The notes below the pieces were generated by a model. It was not told the origin of the DNA and searched no databases. It saw nothing but the letters and a program-made list of their open reading frames with translations. The position numbers and the translations under genes are program-made. Of a stretch of 64,000 nt of DNA, positions 20,229 to 33,577 are shown piece by piece. The DNA is taken from NCBI GenBank assembly GCA_965205485.1, contig OZ242180.1:4768001-4832000 (forward strand), given 5' to 3'. This DNA is from Candidatus Latescibacterota bacterium. GTDB lineage: Bacteria; Latescibacterota; UBA2968; GCA-2709665. How positions within the stretch are numbered: position 1 is the stretch's first letter; every line of letters starts with the position of its first letter.

Positions 20229-21914
20229 TCAGAACAGACCGACCGTGTGTCCGGCTTCATCATAATCGATCGCCTCGGCCGACGGCCTGCGCGGAAGCCC
20301 CGGCATTGTCATGACGTCTCCGGTATACACGACCACAAAACCTGCCCCGGCGGACACCCTCACGTCGCGGATGGGCACGTCGAAACCCCTCGGTCTGCCC
20401 TTCAATCCCGGATCCGTCGAGAGCGAATACTGGGTCTTGGCCATACAGACCGGAAGCCTACCGTGCCCCGCTTCCTCGAGCTTTGCGAACCGGGCTCTCA
20501 ACCGTTTGTCCCCCATAATATCGTCGGCGCCGTAGACTTCGCGGGCAACGATCCTGGCCTTGTCCCACAGGCGAAGACTGTCGGGATAGAGAAGCTTGAA
20601 ATCACGGGACGCCGTTTCCGCGGTTTCGACGACCGTTTCCGCAAGCGCCTCGGCGCCGGCCCCCCCTTTCGCCCAGTGTTCCGAAGGAACGATCGGCAGA
20701 TCCAGGTCGGCGCACCCGTCCCGTATCAGAGCGATCTCAGCGGGCGTATCGGAAAGAAAGCGGTTCACGGCCACGACCGCGGGCAGGCCGAAACGCCGGA
20801 TGTTTTCGATGTGCTTCCTCAGGTTAACGAGACCCTTTTCCAGCGCCGCCGGGTCGGCGTCCGACAGTCGCCTGAGGGAGGCGCCGCCATGGTACTTCAG
20901 CCCCCGGACGGTCGCCACGAGCACCACCACATCCGGACGGATACCGGCCTGCCTGCATTTGATATTCAGAAACTTCTCCGCGCCCAGGTCCGCGCCGAAT
21001 CCGGCTTCGGTTACGGTATACTCGGACAGACGCATCGCCAGCTTCGTCGCGATCACCGAATTGCATCCATGCGCGATATTGGCGAACGGGCCGCCGTGAA
21101 CGATGGCGGGATTGTTCTCCAGGGTCTGAACCAGATTCGGCTTTAATGCGTCTCTCAACAGAACGGACATCGCCCCGTGCACATTGAGGTCCGACGCCGT
21201 GACCGGTTCATTGGCTCGCGTATACGCCACGATGATCCGACCCAGCCGCTCCCGGAGCTCGTCAAGCGACTCGGACAGGCAGAAAATCGCCATCACTTCG
21301 GACGCGACCGTGATTTCAAATCCCGATTCACGAGGATAGGAGTTCCCCGTACCTCCCAGACCGACGACGACTTCACGAAGCGCGCGGTCGTTCATATCCA
21401 TCACGCGCTTCCAGAGTACGCGCCGGGGATCGATTTGCAGCCGGTTCCGGTGGTGGATGTGGTTGTCGATCGCGGCGGACAGCAGATTGTGAGCGACCCC
21501 GATGGCATGGATGTCGCCCGTAAAGTGCAGGTTGATGTCCTCCATCGGCGCCACCTGGGACATCCCCCCGCCCGCAGCGCCGCCCTTCATTCCAAAACAG
21601 GGACCCAGGGAAGGCTCCCTGAGACAGATTGCCGTGCGCTTGCCCAGCCGGTTCAGCGCATCGCCCAGGCCCACGGTCGTGGTTGTCTTGCCTTCGCCGG
21701 AAGGCGTGGGATTGATTGCCGAGACCAGCACCAGCTTGCCGGCGGGATTACCGGCAAGGCTGTCGTAGAAGTCCATCGAAACCTTGGCTTTGTGCCTGCC
21801 GTAGACTTCCAACTGGTCTTCCGGCACGCCCAATGTCTGCGCGACCTGACCGATATGGCGCAGACGCGCCCGCCTCGCGATCTCGATGTCCGGCAAACCG
21901 TCGTGTTCGCGCAT
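20229..21914 (-). CDS. fhs: Formate--tetrahydrofolate ligase
   Basis: [60 protein letters not shown] and MTMPGLP motifs. Confidence 0.97.
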
Positions 21915-21923
21915 GAAACCTTT

Positions 21924-23318
21924 CTAGCCGCCCGCCTGCGCTTCGTCGATTTCCGCCTGAACGAGTTCGTCTGCATCCGCCGTCTCGTTCTGAATGGACA
22001 CGTGATCCAGGCCCGCAAGTTCTATTCGACCCGGTATGCGCAAAACGCCAAGCTTTTTGAGGATCCCACCCAGGACGTAGCAGGGAAGAAAGCCCAGCAC
22101 GAAAAACATAATGACGGCTCCGAGCGTCTGTCCCCACGGCGTAATCGGAGCGTACTCGGGATTGGCGGCGGGGTAACCCCAGAGTACGAATCCCGCGACA
22201 ATCACCCCGATAACCCCGGCATAGCCATGTACCGCCACGGCGCCCACCGCATCGTCGATCCTGAATCTCTTCTCGACCCAATTGTGCAATTTGTACATGC
22301 AGAACGTGCCGAATGCGCCGATGAGCAGCGCCTGCATCGGATGGTACAGGTCGTTGCCGGCCGATGCCGTGATGATGCCGGCAAGTCCGCCCGAGAAGGT
22401 CCAGTACGGATCGCCTTTGGACACGAAATAGCCCATGATTAATCCACCGGCGAGCGACATCAGAAAGTTGAACGTGATGGCGCTGAGCGTCGTGGGCGTC
22501 AGGTAAATCGTGGTGGCGGAAAAGAACGCGCGGTCGCCGGCGGGATCCACGTCCATGATGGGCACGTTACAGGCAGCGTAGAAGCCCCAGAACCCCGTAT
22601 AGATCAGAAACAGACCGATAATGACCAGCCAGGTGTTTTGCGGCGGGAAGTTTCTGGGAGAACCGTCGGACCTGAATCTGCCGATCCGCGGTCCCAGGTG
22701 ATAGAGGATCGCCAGCGCGGACCCGCCGCTGATCGCGTGGATCACACCGGAGGCGTATGCGTCGTGGTATCCCAGTACCTGAACCATCCAGCCGTCGGCG
22801 GACCAGCCCCACGCCGCGTCGATCACCCAGGTAACCGATCCTACCAGCACGGCGAAAATCCAGAACGCGGCGGATCGGATGCGTTCGATGACCGCACCCG
22901 AAAGAATCGACCCCGCCGTCCATGAGAACAGCAGAAACGCCGCCCAGAACACGCCGTTCAGCCGCGCCCATAGCGCGGTGTCGTCTCCGGTCAGCCCGCC
23001 GCCGTGCGGCTTGCCACCCATATGCGTCCCCATCAGCTCATTCCAGGGCGTCGCCCACGCGGCTTCGATCAGCCCACCCGTGATCCCGGGTCCGTTCTGA
23101 ACGGCGAAATAGATCCACCACCCGAAGAAATAGAACGTGATGGTGACCAGAGGAATCAACATCGCGTTCTTCATGAGGGTGTGCATCATATTCTTCCTCC
23201 TGGACACGCCGACTTCGTACAGACAGAAGCCGACGTGGATGAGGAACATGAGCACGATACATATCCAGTAATAGAACTCCGTAAACACGACGGTCAATGC
23301 GCTGAGTTCGTTGTCCAT
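21924..23318 (-). CDS. amt: Ammonium/methylammonium transporter (Amt family, divergent clade)
   Basis: About 11 TM segments, SGAVIERI, twin-His motifs (SGVIH; DDAVGAVAVHG) and LGPRIGRF. Confidence 0.9.
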   Translation of the reverse strand: MDNELSALTVVFTEFYYWICIVLMFLIHVGFCLYEVGVSRRKNMMHTLMKNAMLIPLVTITFYFFGWWIYFAVQNGPGITGGLIEAAWATPWNELMGTHMGGKPHGGGLTGDDTALWARLNGVFWAAFLLFSWTAGSILSGAVIERIRSAAFWIFAVLVGSVTWVIDAAWGWSADGWMVQVLGYHDAYASGVIHAISGGSALAILYHLGPRIGRFRSDGSPRNFPPQNTWLVIIGLFLIYTGFWGFYAACNVPIMDVDPAGDRAFFSATTIYLTPTTLSAITFNFLMSLAGGLIMGYFVSKGDPYWTFSGGLAGIITASAGNDLYHPMQALLIGAFGTFCMYKLHNWVEKRFRIDDAVGAVAVHGYAGVIGVIVAGFVLWGYPAANPEYAPITPWGQTLGAVIMFFVLGFLPCYVLGGILKKLGVLRIPGRIELAGLDHVSIQNETADADELVQAEIDEAQAGG

Positions 23319-23382
23319 CTAATCCCTCCGAATTGAGCGATAAGAATGCCCGACGCCCGCGACAGGCGCAATTCAGATCTTA

Positions 23383-23544
23383 GAAGCTGTGTTAAAATTC
23401 CCAGCGGTCTTCGCGCGGCTGCAAAAGCGCCGGTCGGCGTTGGTCAAACCCGCCCGTATAGACAAATATGCGCGGATTTTCCCGCCTTGACCGCCACTTT
23501 TTCGCTCGCGCTCGGGAACTGACCGGTAATTTTAACACAGCTTC
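23383..23544. mobile_element. MITE (family B, copy 2)
   Basis: TIRs GAAGCTGTGTTAAAATT / AATTTTAACACAGCTTC with TTA/TGA flanks. About 75 bp at the left and 45 bp at the right are near-identical to 3513-3722; the middle differs. Confidence 0.85.
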
Positions 23545-24032
23545 TGAGCCGTCCCGTCCGACATCCTGCGGTACTTTCCCTGGTAAAACAGGAGCGGACG
23601 ACCTGAACCCGCGTCGCCCGCTACGATTTCACCCACGAAAATATCGTGGTCGCCGGCCCTCAAGACGTCGGCCAGCATACATTCCACGTGGCCCAGTGCG
23701 TCCGTGAGGATGGGCGCGCCGGTCCGGATCGTCGTTGTGGCCACGTTTGTAAAGTCCTTTGGACCCGGTCTGGCAAACTGCGTTGAAACCGCTTCCTGAT
23801 CCTCGCTGAGGATATTCAATGCGAAATACCGGCTTTCCGTCAAATGGGCGTGCATCTGCGCCCCTTTGTCCACGGATACCATGACCAGCGGGGGCTCCAG
23901 CGAAAGCGAGGTCACGGCATTGGCCGTCATTCCCCTGTATTCGCCGCCTGCAACGGTCGTGACAACGGTGACGCCGGTTGCAAAACAACCCATAATCCGA
24001 CGTTGCTCCATCGGGTCGAAGGCCATTCCCAT
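23532..24032 (-). CDS. Flavin reductase (HpaC/RutF-like) family protein
   Basis: R..MG.FATGVTVVT, GMTANAVTSLSLEPPLV, GDHDIFVGEI and PLLFY.G.Y motifs. The last codons and stop lie inside the MITE TIR. Confidence 0.93.
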   Translation of the reverse strand: MGMAFDPMEQRRIMGCFATGVTVVTTVAGGEYRGMTANAVTSLSLEPPLVMVSVDKGAQMHAHLTESRYFALNILSEDQEAVSTQFARPGPKDFTNVATTTIRTGAPILTDALGHVECMLADVLRAGDHDIFVGEIVAGDAGSGRPLLFYQGKYRRMSDGTAQKLC

Positions 24033-24130
24033 TCCCTCTCAACGAGTGCGCCGTCCGCCACGAAACTTCCCCTCCCGTCCAGGCGGTTCCGCGCCGGCCG
24101 GGGAAGCATTGCCGGCCCCGGAAGCTGTAA

Positions 24131-26467
24131 TCAGGAACGAAGCCGCGTTTTGTCCGGATCGTAAAACGGAAACCGCACCACCCGCGCGGAAATGCGCTTC
24201 TGATGGCCGTCCAGCCTTCCCACCTCGACTTCCACTCCGATCGCGGCGTACCCGGTCGCGATCCGGCAGAGCGCGATGTTCCTGCCCAGAATCGGTGAGC
24301 GGGCGCCGCTGGTGATCACGCCAACGCGGCCGCGCCCGTCGTAGACGTCGTCGCCGGAGGCGACCGGTTCATTCCCGGATACCTCCAGCCCCACCAGCAC
24401 GCGTTGTGGATGCGACCGCCTTCGGATCAGCGCTTCTTTGCCGATAAAGTCGTCTTTCTTGCGCCTGAGCGGAACCGTGAAGCCGATCCCCGCCTCGAAC
24501 GGGTCCGTCTGATCGTCGAACTCACAGCCCGCGAAAACCAGACCGGCGTCGATTCGCAGCATGTCCAGGGCTTCCAGCCCCAGTGGTGTCAGGCCGTACC
24601 CCTGTCCCGCTTCCCAGATGGCGTCCCAGACCGGGTTCGCGTCGTTGGGATGGCACCATACCTCGTAACCCAGTTCACCCGTGTAGCCGGTCCGCGAGAC
24701 GACGACCGCCGGACCGTTTCCATCGCCGATTCGGCCCACCGTGAACCGGAACCAGCCCAATTCGGCCAGAGACGGGCGCGAAGGAGGGGTCCAGATGACG
24801 TCGCGAAGGATATCCCGGCTTCGGGGACCCTGAACGGCAAGATTATGGAGTTGATCGGTCGAGTTTCTGACCCACACCCGCAACCCGAGTCGACCCGCCT
24901 GTTCGCGCAGCCATTTGCCCCCGTAGTCGTCGCCGCAGATCCACCGGAAATTTTCGGGGCCCAGCCGGAACAGCGTGCCGTCGTCCAGCATGCCGCCGGT
25001 TTCGTAACACATCGCGGAATAAGTCACCTGGCCCGGAGAAAGCCGGCGAACGTCTCGCGTGAGCGTGTGCTGCAGGAGCGACTCGGCGTCCGGACCCAGG
25101 ACCTCGAACTTGCGAAGCGCGGACAGGTCCATCACCGCCGCCGCCTCGCGGCATGCGAAATACTCCTCGACGGCGCCCCTGCCGGTGTAGCACGAGGGCA
25201 GCCAGAACCCGCGATAGTCCTCGAAATGGCGGGTCAGGGCGGACGTGCGCGGGTGAAAAGCCGTCTCCCTGGTCAACCTGGGCTCGGCGTCTGCCGTCAT
25301 CCGGTGAGCAATCCCTGTGGAAAACCGGTACCGTTCAGGGTAGATGCGGACGTGAATCTCCGTTGGCTCCCAGCCGTTGGCCGGATCAATATCGTCCGGG
25401 CACGCGGACGACAGACACACAAGGTCCGTCGAGGCCTTCAACAGGACGTAGTCGCCCGGACGAGACCATGGCTCGTCCATGAACAGGACGTTATTCCCGT
25501 CGATTCTCGTATTGTAAAAGAAATTCACGGCCGGCCAGCCGCGCCGCGGGTGAATCGTATACGGGTCCAGTGCCGCGTTGAAGTTGTCCGTACAGTTGAC
25601 GTGACCCGGATAACCCATATCCTCGTAATATTTGGCGGTGCACGCAAGCGCAAACGTATCGTGCCGACCTACCGTATCCCGAACGACCTCGACCAGCGGC
25701 TGCATATCCTGGTCGTAAAACTTCGAATAGAGGCCCGGACCGGGATAGGCCGTGCCCATGAGGGTCCGCGTGGTGGTCGCATCCAGGCCACGCTCAACGC
25801 CACGCTGCAGTTGCCGGGCGTCGAACGCCAGAAAATCGGAACACTGGCGCCCGGCGACGTCGATCACCTGGATGAATTCTCCGGCTTTGACCTCAAAGGC
25901 GACGGCCGACGCCCTTTCCACCTCCAGATCCAGGCGCATGTCCCCCAGAGGCGCGGGCAGCGGGGGGCGTTCCGGCGTTTCCGCACTCGAGCGCCTGACC
26001 ACGACTTCCAGGTCCGTGGGTGGATCCTGGGCATCCACCCGCATCGGTCCGCCGGGCGCCGCAATCACGCAGACGGCGTCCCGATGCACGTCGAAGCGCG
26101 CTTCGGCGCCCGCTTCCGACGCTTCGCCGAAGACCTGCACCGCCCGCGCGCCACCCAGGTTGACGCCCCTGCGCCGCAGGGCCGCGTCGGCCGCCCGCGC
26201 GCTTTCATCCCCGCGCCGAAGCGCCTCCGCGAAACCTTCCATCGCACCGTCAGCTCGGAGACCCAGCCTGGCGGGATCGGCCCCGCCGTCAGGACCGAAT
26301 ACGCCCAGCTCGCAACGCTGGCGCCCCTCCACGTCCACGACCGCCAGCCGGTCGCCCTGCGACACCACCAAGGCGATCGCCCCGCCGCCCGGCACCCGGT
26401 AACGCTCCCTGCCCGGCGTCCATCTCAGCAGTCCCGTACCGGCCATTTGGACGTCTTCAGGCATCAC
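24131..26467 (-). CDS. tdm: Trimethylamine N-oxide demethylase (DUF1989 + GcvT-type THF-binding domain)
   Basis: 778 aa. DUF1989 region with F-x3-C-x12-H-x2-C-x25-Y-x15-W-x21-C spacing, which matches my recollection of the Zn/Fe/substrate residues of characterised Tdm. C-terminal GcvT motifs DLSALRKF, SRTGYTGELGYE and PFYDP. Confidence 0.88.
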   Translation of the reverse strand: MMPEDVQMAGTGLLRWTPGRERYRVPGGGAIALVVSQGDRLAVVDVEGRQRCELGVFGPDGGADPARLGLRADGAMEGFAEALRRGDESARAADAALRRRGVNLGGARAVQVFGEASEAGAEARFDVHRDAVCVIAAPGGPMRVDAQDPPTDLEVVVRRSSAETPERPPLPAPLGDMRLDLEVERASAVAFEVKAGEFIQVIDVAGRQCSDFLAFDARQLQRGVERGLDATTTRTLMGTAYPGPGLYSKFYDQDMQPLVEVVRDTVGRHDTFALACTAKYYEDMGYPGHVNCTDNFNAALDPYTIHPRRGWPAVNFFYNTRIDGNNVLFMDEPWSRPGDYVLLKASTDLVCLSSACPDDIDPANGWEPTEIHVRIYPERYRFSTGIAHRMTADAEPRLTRETAFHPRTSALTRHFEDYRGFWLPSCYTGRGAVEEYFACREAAAVMDLSALRKFEVLGPDAESLLQHTLTRDVRRLSPGQVTYSAMCYETGGMLDDGTLFRLGPENFRWICGDDYGGKWLREQAGRLGLRVWVRNSTDQLHNLAVQGPRSRDILRDVIWTPPSRPSLAELGWFRFTVGRIGDGNGPAVVVSRTGYTGELGYEVWCHPNDANPVWDAIWEAGQGYGLTPLGLEALDMLRIDAGLVFAGCEFDDQTDPFEAGIGFTVPLRRKKDDFIGKEALIRRRSHPQRVLVGLEVSGNEPVASGDDVYDGRGRVGVITSGARSPILGRNIALCRIATGYAAIGVEVEVGRLDGHQKRISARVVRFPFYDPDKTRLRS

Positions 26468-27858
26468 CCCTCGTCGGTTTCGGCCAGAAGCTCACGGGCG
26501 AGTTCCTTCTTGCTCCCGCCATCCATTTTCTTGAGTTCGTTTCTCAATAGCCGCTCGTTTACGGACTGGTTCCAGTAATCCAACGAGTCGAACCCAAGCA
26601 GCACGCTCTTGCCCACAAATTGGCGCAGGACCTCATTCGTGGGGCCCATCACCCAACCGGCCTTGCCGTCGCGCAGATACCGTTCGATTCCCAGGTCGGG
26701 CTTGTAACCCGTCCCCCCACAGGCATGCAGCATCTTGTCGGAGACGTTCGCCACGTTCTTCGCCGCCGTGAACTTCACCTGCCACATCCAGTGCAGCACG
26801 TCCGCCCTTGGCATACGGGAGAGATCCTCGTGGATCGACCAGTCGCACTGATTCGTAACGTCGTCCATCGCCCGGGCCATCAGGTAGACGAAGGACCGTG
26901 AGGTGTTCGTATCGATCACGGCCTCGCCCACGTAATCCTGGATGGTCGGATAGTCAGCAACCCGCATGCCCACGTCAGCGTGCCGCCTGGCGGTGGTGTG
27001 CCGCCTGGCGATATCGATCATACCCAGTGAAATTCCGTTCCAGCAGGCCGATGAGCACAACAGGAAAAACGGATCCACCGTCTCGTCGTTCGAATTCGCC
27101 CCGTCGCCCACGGGACCCACCAGCCTGCTTTCCGGCATCGTGACGTTGTCCACCTCCAGCGTGCCGGACTGATTCCCGCGCAGACCCAGGCCGTCCCAAA
27201 GGGACGGCTCCGCCTTCACCTCGTCGGCCATGACGAGAAAACAGGACAGATTCGAATAGTCACCGCCGAAATCAGGGCTTGTTGTCTGCACGATGTACCA
27301 GTCGGCAAAACCCGCGGACGTCGTCCACGACGCCTTCTTTCGCACCTTCCAGCCGCCATCCACCCGCTCCGCTCCCGACGATATCGGATACCAGAAATGT
27401 GAACCCGTTTCGGGATCCGAATAGGACAGCGTGCCCACCAGTACGTCTTTGTCGAGGCGTTTCATGAGGTCCTGAAGCGTCGTGTTGTCGTGCGCCCGGA
27501 ACATGGCGGCTGCGACAGCCCCGACGTGCATGGTATAACACATCGCCGTACTTGCGCAGCCGTAACGCGCGATCGTCTCCACCACCATCGCCGTACACGT
27601 ATGGTTCTCACCCAGTCCTCCCCATTCGCGGGGTACGTTCAGCCCTAGCAGGCCCAGAGAAGCCAGCGCCTCGAAGTTCTTCCGTGGAAACACGAGCTCG
27701 CGATCGCTCTCAACCGCATTGTCCCGCAGCGTCGTCCGGCACAGGTCGATCAGCTTCTCCTGGAGCGCCTCCTGTTCGTTCGTCAATACCCACTGGGGGT
27801 CCCAGTCGTAGTCGAGACCCCAGAACGCATCCGGACCCCACATCTTCGACTTGCTCAT
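26464..27858 (-). CDS. Acyl-CoA dehydrogenase-fold flavoprotein, candidate monooxygenase component
   Basis: ACAD motifs LGLLGL.VP.EWGGLG, SDPETGS, K.SWTT, WDGLGLRGNQS and HACGGTGY...ERYLRD. GGAGG RBS before ATG 27858. Stop overlaps the tdm start (GTGA). Confidence 0.88.
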   Translation of the reverse strand: MSKSKMWGPDAFWGLDYDWDPQWVLTNEQEALQEKLIDLCRTTLRDNAVESDRELVFPRKNFEALASLGLLGLNVPREWGGLGENHTCTAMVVETIARYGCASTAMCYTMHVGAVAAAMFRAHDNTTLQDLMKRLDKDVLVGTLSYSDPETGSHFWYPISSGAERVDGGWKVRKKASWTTSAGFADWYIVQTTSPDFGGDYSNLSCFLVMADEVKAEPSLWDGLGLRGNQSGTLEVDNVTMPESRLVGPVGDGANSNDETVDPFFLLCSSACWNGISLGMIDIARRHTTARRHADVGMRVADYPTIQDYVGEAVIDTNTSRSFVYLMARAMDDVTNQCDWSIHEDLSRMPRADVLHWMWQVKFTAAKNVANVSDKMLHACGGTGYKPDLGIERYLRDGKAGWVMGPTNEVLRQFVGKSVLLGFDSLDYWNQSVNERLLRNELKKMDGGSKKELARELLAETDEG

Positions 27859-27906
27859 AACGCCTCCAGGCTGTTTGGTACGCCGGGTTTGCAACCCGGC
27901 CATGCG

Positions 27907-28314
27907 CTATCCGCCTTCGCCTTCGAGCTTGATTCCGTACGCGTCGCCAAGCTCCATGACGGGATGTTTTTCGGACATCTGGAACTTGACGAGCAGTTCG
28001 CGCGCAATCATGTCGCGCTCCTGCTGGTTGTCGGGCAGCGCCATATCTTCGGGCACCAGCACCCAGCCGTTGATGTTCCGGTCGAATACGGCGGGCTTCC
28101 CATCTTCGTATCCCATATGCACATCTTCCAGCCAGTTCAGGTCCCGCCACCCCATCGCCTCCATGTATCGCTTCAGGAGCGGCGTCAGCAGCGTATAGTC
28201 CGGCGGAAGGTTCACGTCGTACCGATATCCGATGTGCTGACCGATCTCCTTCTCGCGGTCCGAGTCAAGCCCCGTGGACTTCAGGTAGTAATTCACGTCT
28301 CTGGCTTCGTCCAT
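27907..28314 (-). CDS. Hypothetical protein (135 aa, acidic and aromatic-rich)
   Basis: AGGAG RBS and GC3-rich codons. Lies co-oriented between the mgsC-like and ACAD-fold genes. No family recognised. Confidence 0.75.
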   Translation of the reverse strand: MDEARDVNYYLKSTGLDSDREKEIGQHIGYRYDVNLPPDYTLLTPLLKRYMEAMGWRDLNWLEDVHMGYEDGKPAVFDRNINGWVLVPEDMALPDNQQERDMIARELLVKFQMSEKHPVMELGDAYGIKLEGEGG

Positions 28315-28396
28315 CGGATTCTCCTGATTCAGTATCCCGGAAAGTGGAGCGCAAGACCGGCGGTGTGCGTTGTGGTCTTCTTCCTTCTTCCGTCGT

Positions 28397-29761
28397 TCAA
28401 TACCGGTTCATCTCCGGATGGCCCACCGTATGGCGGGTGCCCGCAAGCGGCACCTCAGCCATGGCGGATGCTTCCATGGTCAGCGCCGCAAGATCTTCCG
28501 GCTCGAGGGAATGGACGTCGGTCTTGCCGCAGGCCCTGGCGAACATCTGGCATTCGATCGCGAGGGTATGCAGGAAATTGTAGACCCGTTCGGCCGCTTC
28601 GTCCGGGTCCAGGCGGCTCCGAAGCACCGGATCCTGGGTGGCCACGCCCACCGGGCACAGCCCGGTATGGCAATGATAGCAGTAACCCGCCGGAACGCCG
28701 ACCGTCCCCTCGTAATCCGCCTCCGGGATATCCTTGTTGCAATTCAGCGCAACCATCGCCGCGGTGCCGATGGCTACCGCGTCGGCGCCAAGCGCAAGCG
28801 CCTTGGCAACATCGGCCCCGTTTCGTATGCCTCCCGCATAGACGAGCGTAATCTCACCGGTCTTTCCAACGTCATCCAGCGCCTTTCTGGCCTGCCGTAT
28901 CGCCGCGATACCCGGCACGCCCGTCTCCTCGGTGGCCAGGTGGGGACCCGCCCCCGTCGAACCCTCCATCCCGTCCATATAGATGCTGTCGGGCCCGGTC
29001 TTGGCCGCCATCCTCACATCGTCGTAGACCCGCGCCGCGCCGAGCTTCAGCTGGATGGGTATCTGCCAGTTGGTGGCTTCGCGAATTTCCTCGATCTTCA
29101 GGGCCAAATCGTCGGGACCCAGCCAGTCCGGGTGCCTGGCGGGAGAACGCTGGTCGATCCCCGCCGGCAACGAGCGCATTTCGGCCACCTGGTCCGTCAC
29201 CTTCTGGCCCATCAGGTGCCCGCCGAGGCCCACCTTGCAGCCCTGGCCGATGAAAAACTCCACGCCGTCGGCAAGACGCATGTGGTGCGGATTGAACCCG
29301 TAGCGGGACTGAATGCACTGGTACAGCCACTTCTCCGAATACCGGCGTTCGTCGGGCAGCATTCCGCCTTCTCCGGAACAGGTTGCCGTGCCCGCCATCG
29401 TGGCCCCTCTCGCCAGCGCCACCTTCGCTTCGTAAGACAGCGCGCCGAAACTCATCCCCGTGATGTAAATGGGAATATCCAGCACCAGCGGCCGTTCGGC
29501 CATCGGCCCAAGCACTGTCTTCGTTTCGCATTTCTCGCGGTACCCCTCGATGACGAACCGGGTGAGCGTGCCCGGAAGAAACGTCAGGTCGTCCCACGAC
29601 GGGATCTCCTTGAAAAGCGCCATGCCGCGCATGCGGTACCGACCCAGATTCGACTTGATGTGTATATCGTCGATCACATGAGGCGGAAACATGAAATTCT
29701 TGCCCAGGACCTGTGGATTCCGTTCGATCCCTGCATTGCCGTTGTCCGAATGTGGTTCCAT
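28397..29761 (-). CDS. mgsC: FMN-binding glutamate synthase family protein (GlxD / N-methylglutamate synthase subunit C-like)
   Basis: GMSFGALS, SGEGGM, GQGCKVGLGGHL.G.KV, IDQRSPARHPDWLGPDDL, GGIRNGADVAKALALGA and CYHCHTGLCPVGVATQD ([3Fe-4S]) motifs. Confidence 0.8.
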   Translation of the reverse strand: MEPHSDNGNAGIERNPQVLGKNFMFPPHVIDDIHIKSNLGRYRMRGMALFKEIPSWDDLTFLPGTLTRFVIEGYREKCETKTVLGPMAERPLVLDIPIYITGMSFGALSYEAKVALARGATMAGTATCSGEGGMLPDERRYSEKWLYQCIQSRYGFNPHHMRLADGVEFFIGQGCKVGLGGHLMGQKVTDQVAEMRSLPAGIDQRSPARHPDWLGPDDLALKIEEIREATNWQIPIQLKLGAARVYDDVRMAAKTGPDSIYMDGMEGSTGAGPHLATEETGVPGIAAIRQARKALDDVGKTGEITLVYAGGIRNGADVAKALALGADAVAIGTAAMVALNCNKDIPEADYEGTVGVPAGYCYHCHTGLCPVGVATQDPVLRSRLDPDEAAERVYNFLHTLAIECQMFARACGKTDVHSLEPEDLAALTMEASAMAEVPLAGTRHTVGHPEMNRY

Positions 29762-30025: not shown

Positions 30026-30772
30026 TCAATCGGCCTTCACCGAGACGTAGAGTCCCCGGCCCCGCATCAGACCGTTTTCGTCGTATCTCGGCCGCAGACC
30101 CGAATGCGCCATTATCTCGAGAAATCTCTCCCGGTCGAACAGGGCCATCTCGTGGGTGTCGCGGAAATACCGGGTGCCTTTTTTCGTAGAAAGGAGAAAA
30201 TGAAAATCGAGGACGGCCAGGTTTCCGCGGCGGCGACTCACGTTGTGCCTTGAGATTTTTACGCCGTCAGCTTCAAGCGTGGCTCCGTGGATCGATCCCG
30301 CAACGAACGTCTCTTTCGTGAAAAAGGGCTCGATAATCAGAATGCCGCCCGGTTTCAGATGTCTTGCAAAACAGGCGATCGTCCGTTTCAGGTTCCGATA
30401 CGTCCTGACGTAGGCGATCGAACTGAACAGACAGATGACCGCGTCAAAACGACGCTTGAGATTGAAGGACGTCATGTCCCGGGACAGAAATGTGACACCG
30501 GGTATTTTTCTGCGGGCTACCTTCAACATTTCCCGATTCAGATCCACGCCGGTGATATCGTAGTGGTCCCGCAGATATCGGGTATGCCCGCCGGTCCCGC
30601 ACGCGACGTCCAGCAGTGTGTTACCGTGCGACACACAATGTGAACGGATCAACTGATGAACCCGCTCCGACTCGGCCCGATAGTCCTTCCACTGATACAT
30701 GACGTCGTAAAACGGCGCCAGCTCGGCCCACATCTTCTCGGTTTCATTCAGCGTCAACCCGGCCTCCCGCAA
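30026..30772 (-). CDS. Class I SAM-dependent methyltransferase (TylM1/DesVI-like N-methyltransferase pattern)
   Basis: A.FYD.MY..KDY.AE, LLDVACGTGGH, FDAVICLFSSIAY and HLKPGG.L.IEP motifs. Exact start uncertain. Confidence 0.85.
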   Translation of the reverse strand: MREAGLTLNETEKMWAELAPFYDVMYQWKDYRAESERVHQLIRSHCVSHGNTLLDVACGTGGHTRYLRDHYDITGVDLNREMLKVARRKIPGVTFLSRDMTSFNLKRRFDAVICLFSSIAYVRTYRNLKRTIACFARHLKPGGILIIEPFFTKETFVAGSIHGATLEADGVKISRHNVSRRRGNLAVLDFHFLLSTKKGTRYFRDTHEMALFDRERFLEIMAHSGLRPRYDENGLMRGRGLYVSVKAD

Positions 30773-30807: not shown

Positions 30808-31782
30808 CTACCGGGCGAAAAAGTGATACGTGGCGCCCACGTGTAGCTGATAATTGGAAGTCAGCTGGCTCTCATTCACATTCTGGTAAACAGGAAGCGG
30901 CAATCTCGCTTCCAGGCTCAGATTCTCCATCGCCCGTACGCCCAGTTTCGGCGCAAGATAGACCCAGGTGCCCCCACGTTTTCGGGCGATCTTTCCGTAT
31001 TGGAAAAAATCGCGGGCCGTGTGAACGTGGTTCAGGCTGAGACCCGCAATGAGCTTGTCCCCGTGGAGATAATCCATGGAAAAGATGCCTTGAAACTCGT
31101 TTCCGTATTTGTATCCGTATACATTCTCGCGGGAAATAATGCGGGTGAACAGCATGCCGGAGAAGAACAGGTTGTCGAACGAGCGCGAAAGACTGACAGA
31201 GAGAATGGGGTCCATGCTTCCGGAACCCACCTGCAGCAGATCGGCGAACCGCTCGCCGTACTCATCGACCGCGTGGGTCGACCCGTTCGCGAGCTTGACG
31301 CCTGCTGAAAAGAGCAGCCCGGGCAACGCTTCCGGCAGAGGCGGAGCAAAGTTCAACATCAGAACGACGTCGCCGAGACCGGCGGCGTGCCGGACGTACT
31401 CGCCGCCCAGATACTGGTTGTCGTACTGACCTGGAAGGAGGATTTTATCGTTGGTTATGGAACGAAACGGAAGCACCACGGCGGCGCCGAACCATTCCGT
31501 GACCCCGTAACTCGCGAATACGGATACCGTTGACATGCTGGTCACTTCCTGGTTGATGTTGGGTATCGGTCCGGTACCGAACTTCGCATCGCCCAGATAC
31601 TCGTATTCGTAATTCATGCTCAGAACCAGAAGGTCTTTCGAAATCAGACTGCCCTGCAGCATTCTCCCGCCCGGGAGCACGGGGCGGCGTCAACTCACGC
31701 CCGGCTGCGCCAGTACGAGCTGTTCCGTGAGAATCAGCTGGGCGAACAGAATCAGCGGAAAAACGTGTAACGAGCGTCTCAT
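30808..31782 (-). CDS. Exported outer-membrane beta-barrel 'transporter'-like protein with an in-frame UGA at codon 31 (putative selenocysteine)
   Basis: GGAGG RBS plus ATG at 31782 gives signal peptide MRRSLHVFPLILFAQLILTEQLVLA-QPGVS-[TGA 31690-31692]-RRPV, in frame with ORF 30808..31680. GLGDV..., VKLANG, LQVGSGS.D and a C-terminal YHF strand fit a MetA-pathway/phenol-degradation-type barrel. Confidence 0.75.
31664..31677 (-). promoter_or_regulatory. Putative bacterial SECIS hairpin
   Basis: CUCCC-GGGC-GGGAG stem-loop starting 12 nt after the UGA. The apical loop starts with G at the 18th nt after the UGA. Confidence 0.55.
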
Positions 31783-31814
31783 GGTCGTGGATCCTCCAGC
31801 GACGTTATTTGCAG

Positions 31815-32318
31815 CTAACCCTTCAACGACTTTTCCAGAATTTTCCTGTATGTCCGAAACGAACGGTAACCCGAAAAAAGGACCTCGCCACGGGCATTGA
31901 CAATGACAACCGTGGGCGTCAAACGCGTCTCGAAGGCTTCGAACACCCTGCCATCCGAATCAATGTAGCTGTGCAGCGTTTCCTTTCTGTCCGCGAAGAA
32001 GGTCTGGATTTCCTCCGCGCTGTTCTTCCAGGCAATGCCGAAGACCTGGACCCTGTCGCCGAATTTCTTCCTCAACTTGAAGACGTTCTTCAAATCCTTC
32101 TTGCAGGACTTGCACCAGGTTGCCCACAAGTAGACGAAGGATGGCTTGCCTACGCAGACGTCGGCAAGATTCAGCGTATCACCTTCGAGCGTGACAACCT
32201 GCACACGCGGCACGGGACCGGGTTTTCTATCCTTTGCCGCCCCGACATCCGGAACACAGCAGATCAGACACGTTACCAGCGCAACACCGGTGATCCGGGC
32301 CAGTTTTGTCCTGCCCAT
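31815..32318 (-). CDS. TlpA/ResA-family thioredoxin-like disulfide reductase, exported
   Basis: Signal/anchor followed by LWATWCKSC and TPTVVIVN..G.V. GAGGTG RBS before ATG 32318. Confidence 0.9.
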   Translation of the reverse strand: MGRTKLARITGVALVTCLICCVPDVGAAKDRKPGPVPRVQVVTLEGDTLNLADVCVGKPSFVYLWATWCKSCKKDLKNVFKLRKKFGDRVQVFGIAWKNSAEEIQTFFADRKETLHSYIDSDGRVFEAFETRLTPTVVIVNARGEVLFSGYRSFRTYRKILEKSLKG

Positions 32319-32383
32319 AGACATCACCTCAATGAACGGTATCTGTACCCGACAACCGTCTCGCCCGATAGTCGATTGAAAGG

Positions 32384-33577
32384 TCATCTCTCTACGGCAT
32401 ACTTGTAGACCACGCGGATGCGATGATTGAACGTATCCGCGATATACAGATTCTCTTCCCTGTCGAGCGCGACTCCGAACGGACTCCTGAGTTTTCCCCA
32501 CCGGGGATGGTCGCTGTCGCCCTTGAAACCGGGCTCGCCGCACCGGCCGGCAAGCGTGGTGATTGTCCCCTCCGTATCCACCTTCCGGATACAATGGTTG
32601 CCTGTGTCAGCAATATACAGGTTGCCCTCCGCGTCGACGGCCACGTCGCTCGGGCGCGACAGGCTGGCCTGGGTCGCCGGCCCGCCGTCTCCGGAATACG
32701 TACCGGCGGTTGCGCCAATACTGCCGCCGCCGGCCACTGTGCTGATCCTGCCGCTGGTATCCACCATGCGTATCCGGTTGTTGAACGTATCGGCGATATA
32801 AAGGTTGCCCCGGCCATCCATCGTGATCCGGCCGGCAGGCTGCGCGGCGTCACCCGTGGGCGCATACAGGTCGGCCAGGGTCGCAGGACCGCCGTCCCCG
32901 GAAAACCCCTCCCGTCCGGTGCCCGCAACGGTAGAGATGATTCCGTTCAGATCAACCCTTCGAATGCGGAGGTTTCCCTGATCGGAGATATACATGCGGC
33001 CGGACGGATCGAAAACCGTGGAGCTCGGCAGATTCAGAGAGGCATCCAGAGCGGGGCCGCCATCGCCCCTGAACCCGCGATCGCCCCGGCCGGCGATGGG
33101 TTCGACGCGGCGCGAGGTAGCGTCGTATCGCAGGATCCTTGAGTTCTGCCAGGCCGACAGGATCAACCGCCCCTGCGGATCGAACGAAATATGTGCCGGA
33201 TGATCAACGCCTACCTCGAGCGCGGAACCCGCGGGCGCCGCGCCCGGTTCGCCGTTGCCGATCAGAGGGCGCAGGGTTCCGTTGTCGATCACGACAACCC
33301 GATTGTTGTTCCAGTCCAGAATGTACGTCCGGCCGTCGGGGCCGACGGCCATATCCTGAGGGAAATATAACTCCGAGTCGAGAGGACCCGATCCGGAGGC
33401 ATTCCTCCCCGGATCTCCGGTGCCGGCGATGGTGATCATGATTCCATAGGGCAACCCGGGATACGCTTCGTAGAGATCATCGTCCACGGTGGGCGGCGTC
33501 TTCCCACAGGCCGCCACGGCCACGGACGCCCAGATTATGAACGCCAGCCGGACCGAAATTTGTCTCAGGTTTCTCAT
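32384..33577 (-). CDS. NHL-repeat beta-propeller lipoprotein
   Basis: Lipobox VAA-C and repeated G..GFSGDGGPA..A.L..P.DVAVD..GNLYIADT.N.RIR.VD units. Confidence 0.92.
   Translation of the reverse strand: MRNLRQISVRLAFIIWASVAVAACGKTPPTVDDDLYEAYPGLPYGIMITIAGTGDPGRNASGSGPLDSELYFPQDMAVGPDGRTYILDWNNNRVVVIDNGTLRPLIGNGEPGAAPAGSALEVGVDHPAHISFDPQGRLILSAWQNSRILRYDATSRRVEPIAGRGDRGFRGDGGPALDASLNLPSSTVFDPSGRMYISDQGNLRIRRVDLNGIISTVAGTGREGFSGDGGPATLADLYAPTGDAAQPAGRITMDGRGNLYIADTFNNRIRMVDTSGRISTVAGGGSIGATAGTYSGDGGPATQASLSRPSDVAVDAEGNLYIADTGNHCIRKVDTEGTITTLAGRCGEPGFKGDSDHPRWGKLRSPFGVALDREENLYIADTFNHRIRVVYKYAVER

Follow-up and report, generated by a model that had tools for sequence, protein, structure and literature searches.

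A selenoprotein candidate among COG4313-like outer-membrane barrels of Latescibacterota and other bacterial phyla

We analyzed a window of 64,000 nts (the whole stretch of DNA presented here) from a Candidatus Latescibacterota genome. A gene in this window that encodes a predicted outer-membrane beta-barrel is very probably a selenoprotein gene (probability of about 0.96), in which one UGA codon is read as selenocysteine (Sec). Sec insertion into the barrel, as proposed by the first-pass annotation of this DNA, is supported by the presence of the Sec machinery in the host genome, conservation of the TGA codon among relatives, and covariation of the SECIS hairpin.

Gene structure and reading frame

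The features of the gene are listed below.

30808..31782, minus strand: Sec barrel gene read through TGA, precursor of 324 aa, COG4313/FapF-like outer-membrane barrel; full length kept in its kin
31793..31797, minus strand: Shine-Dalgarno-like GGAGG, 10 nt ahead of ATG 31782 (basis: sequence)
31708..31782, minus strand: predicted Sec-pathway signal peptide, codons 1-25, ending V-L-A (basis: sequence)
31690..31692, minus strand: in-frame TGA, inferred selenocysteine, codon 31 (mature residue 6), within S-U-R-R-P-x-L-P-G-G
31664..31677, minus strand: SECIS hairpin, stem 31677-31673/31668-31664, loop GGGC 31672-31669, 17 nt after the UGA (basis: covariation)
31633..31707, minus strand: N-terminal segment of the mature protein, residues 1-25 (basis: model and fold match)
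30811..31632, minus strand: predicted 12-stranded beta-barrel (basis: profile search, model, and fold matches)

The list of open reading frames starts the gene at GTG 31680, 34 codons past an in-frame ATG (31782) preceded by GGAGG (31797-31793), just as the first-pass annotation had described. In most homologues from Latescibacterota and KSB1, the corresponding start codon likewise follows a motif of the GGAG/GAGG type. The extended protein has a signal-like N-terminus with a predicted cleavage site, which is consistent with the proposed signal peptide ending VLA, and translation confirmed a single in-frame TGA (31692-31690) at mature residue 6 (QPGVS-U-RRP). The mature protein has 299 residues and ends at the stop codon TAG (30810-30808); Cys is absent from it, as had been noted, and from the whole Sec barrel protein. 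Promoter and terminator scans gave matches at chance level only.

Among 66 distinct Sec loci, which were chosen on having the TGA, the 24 codons ahead of this codon are open in all 66, each with a hydrophobic core, and the next 24 codons further upstream are open in 18. The first ATG or GTG after the TGA is codon 4 in 20 loci, codon 10-11 in another 20, and codon 36-93 in 17, and nine loci have none within 100 codons; a downstream restart codon is not conserved. This argues against taking the TGA for a genuine stop, an error, or a Trp codon, with the barrel a pseudogene or restarting at GTG 31680; we consider that reading largely refuted. Database copies of the Sec barrel begin at least 40 codons late and have lost their signal peptide, and this annotation is corrected here.

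TGA codon and Sec machinery

The TGA was checked in other assemblies. The codon is covered by contigs from runs X4, X5, and X6, which have 1, 11, and 12 listed differences, respectively, none of which is at the TGA; the runs represent three studies, and that of X4 may be the study of the source assembly. Because these contigs agree at the codon, the TGA is not a sequencing error.

The four genes proposed as a check, selA, selB, selC, and selD, are all present in the host genome (G000; one contig, 97% complete). selA (547.6 bits), selB, and tRNA-Sec (73.4 bits) lie side by side at C1 3225171-3228699, and selD itself has one in-frame TGA. The idea of a Trp codon is disfavored by the finding that, at default settings, tRNA-Sec is the sole tRNA with a TCA anticodon in G000. 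TGA is also the codon that most often closes long open frames here (1,200 of the 2,116 with at least 400 codons), and it terminates the barrels at L072 and L073. On the other side, Trp occupies the site in two database proteins on contigs of 634 and 738 bp (P0043 and P0159); both differ little from TGA forms (L227-L229), and they probably come from gene calling under code 4. Co-occurrence with SelA was rejected as evidence for Sec since it did not discriminate TGA carriers (23 of 25 with SelA) from carriers of the other type (14 of 15). A TGA form without a SelA match was seen in G018, G696, and G585, which are incomplete or small assemblies.

Other frames of G000 also have a TGA with SECIS geometry. 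One (C1 4605772, plus strand; L246:170-1270) encodes a secreted redoxin with a U-x-x-C motif (H-N-U-D-L-C) and a choice-of-anchor D domain, and is probably of the catalogued UxxC redoxin type. Another (C1 5003318, plus strand; L247:203-1126) is TlpA-like with an ordinary CxxC domain, and its frame extends upstream through a TGA (F-P-U-K-I-P) that follows a hydrophobic stretch; it could be an unlisted selenoprotein or a chance stop. We also observed a small protein with Y-P-U-P-A-D-Q and no NCBIfam match (C1 703819, minus strand; L248) and a peroxiredoxin-like protein with G-T-W-U-R-R-T (C1 1258026, minus strand; L250).

Conservation of the TGA codon

The Sec barrel was matched in 17 of 41 related genomes, and each of the 33 matches spanning the N-terminus has exactly one TGA. 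G000 and each of its 14 congeners have two copies. The paralogue in G000 (C1 4221057-4222016, plus strand; L054, L083:8145-10107) is about 52% identical, keeps the TGA and has the same SECIS; it adjoins tRNA-His and tRNA-Arg and is followed by a conserved propeller lipoprotein. When a genome collection was searched, 21 of 26 loci had the TGA (titled Latescibacterota or Gemmatimonadota, KSB1, Calditrichaceae, Fidelibacterota, and uncultured), and five Flavobacteriaceae loci at 26-29% identity had a CC motif instead. S-U-R-R-P was found in 10 of 80 metagenome loci retained from 155, five of them at 36-39% identity.

Phylum-wide searches gave matches in 36 of 168 genomes of the window's phylum, which added, from another family, the distant Sec form of G057 (A-U-R-R-P), in 8 of 167 genomes of the phylum of G042, which added G315, and in 44 of 401 genomes of Marinisomatota (around G044). 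In Marinisomatota, one TGA was present in 26 of 26 close matches and in 0 of 18 distant ones. No close-clade match was found among 401 sampled genomes of a Bacteroidota-centred phylum. A weak TGA-containing match (G104:C415) was set aside, as its TGA is at an unrelated position in a distant barrel.

A motif scan for x-R-[RIH]-P-x-L-P, with the site itself left free, found TGA at x in 58 of 58 distinct segments, which cover Latescibacterota, KSB1, Calditrichota, and Marinisomatota down to ~30% identity. The relatives in all of these counts are kin and hence statistically non-independent. Since the TGA is kept in four phyla and over 30-98% identity, with an unbroken frame before and after it, little room is left for errors or pseudogenes.

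SECIS element

The CUCCC/GGGC/GGGAG hairpin was confirmed 12 nt past the TGA, with a loop G at +18. [quoted passage not shown] Set against the consensus in the same part of that source, most members of the barrel family have GGGC or AGGU loops, and the family has no conserved lower stem. The offset of the hairpin is the same as after the selD TGA in G000 (offset 20, loop GGUC), and equal stem-loop geometry and offset follow 81 of the 140,087 TGA trinucleotides of the genome (0.06%).

RNA folding, the check suggested for the hairpin, left its geometry and covariation standing and showed an unremarkable energy. The SECIS region folded no better than shuffles (z -0.33 to 0.74), so folding energy was rejected as SECIS evidence, and the hairpin was within the MFE structure in two of four windows. 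That it is not thermodynamically special is a further point for the true stop or Trp reading.

Covariation provides the case for a selected SECIS. The synonymous stem pair, formed between third codon positions (of Leu and of the second Gly), is paired in all 58 segments (CG 32, UA 18, UG 3, AU 3, and GC 2), where 67% would be expected if the bases were independent, and the loop-closing pair (first and last loop bases) is paired in 55. In a codon alignment of 35 sequences, these pairs rank first and second, respectively, of 1,275 pairs of variable fourfold sites. The covariation score was reached by none of 500 shuffles, and the real register was 98.6% paired as against 27-79% (maximum 78.9%) for slid controls. 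The Leu codon is CTN in 21 of 21 Marinisomatota segments, and TTR makes up 262 of the 599 other Leu codons of those genes. These patterns indicate that the hairpin is a selected SECIS element, a case that stands on covariation and not on stability. The distant Sec member at L186 (G057:C2 1379187-1380071) has its hairpin register shifted by one base and a 5-nt loop (CGGGC), and the lipoprotein downstream of it is of the carboxypeptidase-regulatory/cytochrome c type.

An alternative is that Sec has no chemical role and that the early UGA, 31 codons into the gene, forms with the SECIS a selenium-dependent translation switch for the channel, governed by selenium or SelB-charged tRNA. The hairpin does explain much of the conservation after the UGA (L-P-G-G-S), and where Sec has been lost its place is taken by Ser, Glu, Ala or Pro and not by Cys, with a Ser pair nested in the Sec clade. 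However, S-U-R-R-P and its distance from the cleavage site are fixed over ~30-98% identity, including the R-R-P codons, which lie outside the stem and whose third positions vary freely. The switch, which we regard as unlikely, also has against it that distant relatives carry Cys pairs of a redox or metal type in this segment and that the thioredoxin linkage fits chemistry.

Predicted fold and plug segment

The exported beta-barrel proposed by the first-pass annotation is supported by the signal-like N-terminus and a predicted 12-stranded barrel. An AlphaFold model, built with Cys replacing Sec, has a pLDDT of 86.9 overall, 54 for residues 1-10, and 54-66 for residues 1-20. Its top fold match is Pput2725 (4rl8; Z 25.6, rmsd 2.4 over 254 residues, Foldseek E 7e-12) and the second is FapF (Z 23.7); except for autotransporters (Z 19.5), these two are far above all other barrels. 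In a search with the family profile, FapF was also the one PDB entry matched by sequence (E 8.8e-7). The window protein has no Pfam match at E 0.01 and no NCBIfam match at E 0.1; PF13557 was matched by 8 of 36 alignment members, with precomputed matches on the close members P0014, P0016, and P0019, and 36 family members were unmatched in NCBIfam at E 0.01.

Model residues 14-296 superpose on residues 1-268 of 4rl8, whose first 14 residues plug the lumen (PMC4493636, accessible part). Residues 14-25 match this luminal plug, and residues 1-13, including Sec, form a low-confidence extension. Autotransporter matches align from model residue 1 with their pore-spanning linker, a hint that the model may run the Sec-bearing extension up the lumen, where the pLDDT is 54. 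In FapF, the chain ahead of the plug helix bends back to the periplasm (PMC5557850, accessible part). In view of the low N-terminal pLDDT and this turn-back, Sec may sit on either side.

Like Pput2725 of COG4313/PF13557 (Phenol_MetA_deg), the Sec barrel is predicted to have 12 strands, is similar in size, and has an N-terminal segment ahead of strand 1 (accessible part of PMC4493636), and like COG4313 channels it has a signal peptide and a mature length within 270-320 residues. It differs from Pput2725 in having ~11% identity, 13 extra N-terminal residues with Sec, A-N-G for the P-T-G motif, and no aromatic-degradation context seen. With FapF (5o65/5o67) it would share a plugged 12-stranded barrel and a short plug helix (model helix 14-19), whereas it has neither a periplasmic coiled coil nor fap genes, and FapF has no Sec (accessible part of PMC5557850).

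Residues replacing Sec and Cys-pair relatives

Homologues were aligned for Cys or a conserved TGA at the site, the absence of both, along with the hairpin, having been named beforehand as counting against Sec. Half of this was found: Cys is absent from close homologues, and Sec and the hairpin are conserved. The six full-length non-Sec members of the clade have Ser (P0013, P0017, and P0056), Glu (P0053), Ala (P0084), or Pro (P0035) at the site. As such non-thiol residues are tolerated, Sec chemistry is not needed for the fold. No clade member found with the queries used has Cys at the Sec site; a protein search for Cys forms with the N-terminal region returned only five truncated copies among six candidates and is a weak test.

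We built a tree of 81 rows hand-picked from search matches, with a midpoint root. On one side of a branch with 100/98 support are 22 Sec, 10 thioredoxin-fusion, five other headless, and six full-length non-Sec rows, the Ser forms P0013 and P0017 being nested within the Sec forms, and 32 Cys-pair rows lie apart from this side. A Cys pair near the mature N-terminus is present in 67 of the 79 full-length proteins with a signal-like N-terminus among 150 representatives, all of them distant. These COG4313-like barrels (CC, CxC, CxxC, and CxxxxC types), which occur in Bacteroidota, KSB1, Proteobacteria, and others, resemble the Sec barrel in having the same barrel and thiol groups among the first mature residues, and have thioredoxin-like neighbours at L124, L133, and L147. 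Unlike it, they have two Cys instead of one Sec, belong to separate clades, and are less than ~32% identical. There is no exact match of Cys and Sec columns; MAFFT aligns Sec with the CxxxxC type only, with gaps. Three tested Cys-pair barrels had no NCBIfam match. CC-type barrels of Flavobacteriaceae at L077:3220-4287 and L080 are followed by a DUF3179 lipoprotein, and both genomes are without SelA; DUF3179 is a catalogued selenoprotein family in other bacteria.

Gene neighbourhood and thioredoxin link

Two genes precede the barrel in the window, in the order lipoprotein, thioredoxin, barrel.

32384..33577, minus strand: NHL-repeat beta-propeller lipoprotein with a lipobox-like A-A-C, upstream, probably co-transcribed
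31815..32324, minus strand: TlpA/ResA-like thioredoxin with a signal-like N-terminus, CxxC as C-K-S-C (32114-32103), stop 32 nt before the barrel ATG

The upstream lipoprotein was also found at L060, L068, L071, and L088. A CxxC TlpA lies upstream in 31 of the 66 Sec loci (17 of 17 orthologues of the window copy and 14 of 49 others); no adjacent TlpA was present at the other 35, including the paralogue in G000. The barrel is also found fused to a C-terminal thioredoxin-like domain. Such fusions fall in the same clade as the Sec barrels (100/98 support), as a sister clade, and comprise 10 representatives (P0038, P0040-P0042, P0047, P0060, P0063, P0086, P0112, and P0130) and eight more (P0204-P0211, with two thioredoxin-like domains in P0206). 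As with the Sec forms, the gene calls of all of them lack a signal peptide, and named members belong to Poribacteria, Armatimonadota, Acidobacteriota, and KSB1. They represent a candidate hidden Sec clade. Fusion genes were not found in the 167 genomes of the phylum of G042 or the 168 of the window's phylum.

A different, seven-bladed-propeller-like lipoprotein lies directly downstream in 48 of the 49 loci outside the orthologue group of the window copy (loose motif scan), and in 0 of 17 for the window copy and its 16 orthologues. It has no conserved Cys beyond the lipid anchor (C212 in 19 of 35). FG-GAP/ASPIC proteins with a secretion tail recur near Sec loci. The barrel might be a FapF-like pore for exporting or anchoring a cargo (the lipoprotein encoded with it, or the FG-GAP protein) that Sec would hold covalently, a reading consistent with the downstream linkage and with FapF as the sole sequence-level PDB match and second match by fold. 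We consider it highly improbable; the Sec barrel has no coiled-coil or passenger region, the downstream lipoprotein is absent from the orthologue group of the window copy, and no free Cys is conserved in the lipoprotein.

A SAM-dependent methyltransferase (30026-30772, minus strand) lies immediately downstream of the barrel and is kept at this place only in the window's genus. Further along (20229-29761, minus strand) are what we take to be formate-tetrahydrofolate ligase-, ammonium-transporter-, flavin-reductase-, aminomethyltransferase-, acyl-CoA dehydrogenase-, and glutamate-synthase-like ORFs, a cluster presumably suggestive of methylamine or C1 use.

Proposed function

We give about even odds to the reading that the protein is an exported channel whose Sec, the only residue of a thiol kind in it, lies on the N-terminal plug segment and is a redox-cycled nucleophile reset by the neighbouring thioredoxin. 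SelB would very probably bind the SECIS and insert Sec. The signal peptide would then be removed and the barrel, judging from its predicted fold, would in all likelihood assemble in the outer membrane. Residues 1-25 would probably lie in the pore or cover it, kept in place by the two Arg that follow Sec, which would also stabilize the selenolate. The last step is speculative and, as a whole, has slightly less than an even chance: a disulfide, persulfide or thiol of a passing substrate or partner might be bound briefly by the selenolate through an Se-S bond; this bond might be reduced by the CxxC TlpA of the periplasm, or by the fused thioredoxin in the case of the sister clade, which would open or reset the gate; and the co-encoded beta-propeller lipoprotein might act as a surface lid or receptor.

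The first-pass annotation had suggested a metal-binding or redox-gated channel as an inference, and the evidence leans towards its redox half, in view of the thioredoxin neighbour and fusion. Redox cycling is favored because thioredoxins are adjacent or fused, and because a single Sec next to two Arg would, lacking any His, Met or Cys partner, be a poor metal site. In Sec-clade barrels no Cys and no His or Met cluster is conserved, only H200 being common (26 of 35), which argues against a multi-ligand metal site. The competing proposal is that the selenolate is a soft-metal ligand by which the channel captures a scarce thiophilic ion, e.g., Cu(I), and that the thioredoxin only keeps this ligand reduced. 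Its support comes from the distant relatives that carry a Cys pair in the same segment, some of which have a gene for a copper chaperone or a heme/cobalt gene beside them (PCu(A)C copper chaperones at L126 and L147, DUF2946 at L124, and HmuY with a CbiX-like gene at L103), and from metal-related transport selenoproteins in the accessible part of the catalogue (PMC13188914). The Sec barrel, however, has no second Cys and no His-rich loop as in the CxxxxC relatives, and no metal-handling neighbour was seen at the Sec loci inspected, where only thioredoxin, propeller lipoprotein, FG-GAP/ASPIC, and sugar-handling genes were found. Metal capture thus appears doubtful, and redox cycling is preferred.

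For the family as a whole, which spans several phyla and has no Cys counterpart in its own clade, we tentatively suggest, with the odds somewhat against it, that the lone plug Sec and a dedicated thioredoxin make up a redox-gated channel and that its hidden Sec members also include the headless fusions found in Poribacteria, Armatimonadota, Acidobacteriota, and KSB1.

Novelty and significance

The 2026 catalogue of 119 families (PMC13188914 Table 1) has no Sec-bearing COG4313 barrel. The outer-membrane entries of that table are a GSU2204/MtrB-PioB-type family (NF041027) and an FCYXU TonB-dependent receptor (NF049945). Like them, the Sec barrel is an exported or outer-membrane protein predicted to have one Sec; unlike them, it has another fold and another motif, and neither NCBIfam model matched it. 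We found no description of a Sec-bearing COG4313 protein in the literature, although the BSepDB online list, paper supplements, and the groundwater deep-Sep candidates could hold one; the accessible parts of a 2022 review, the Haft and Gwadz preprint, and the BSepDB and deep-Sep papers do not mention such a barrel. Nothing was found in the literature on Cys-plug COG4313 proteins and metals.

In its decoding the Sec barrel works like any bacterial UGA/SECIS selenoprotein, and it folds like COG4313. It apparently represents an uncatalogued family of predicted outer-membrane pore selenoproteins whose members are cut short by gene callers. According to the accessible part of the deep-Sep paper (PMC12013277), Cys homologues seem to exist for every known selenoprotein, and the filter used there may miss any that lack them. 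With Ser, Glu, Ala or Pro but not Cys in its close relatives, the Sec barrel is of the kind that such screens discard, and it tests the Cys-homologue rule. The 14-nt SECIS covarying over 58 sequences is a clean natural data set on SelB recognition. The finding adds a selenoprotein family to a compartment (the outer membrane) and a fold (COG4313), a family absent from the catalogue of PMC13188914, and its hosts are abundant uncultured marine and sponge-associated lineages.
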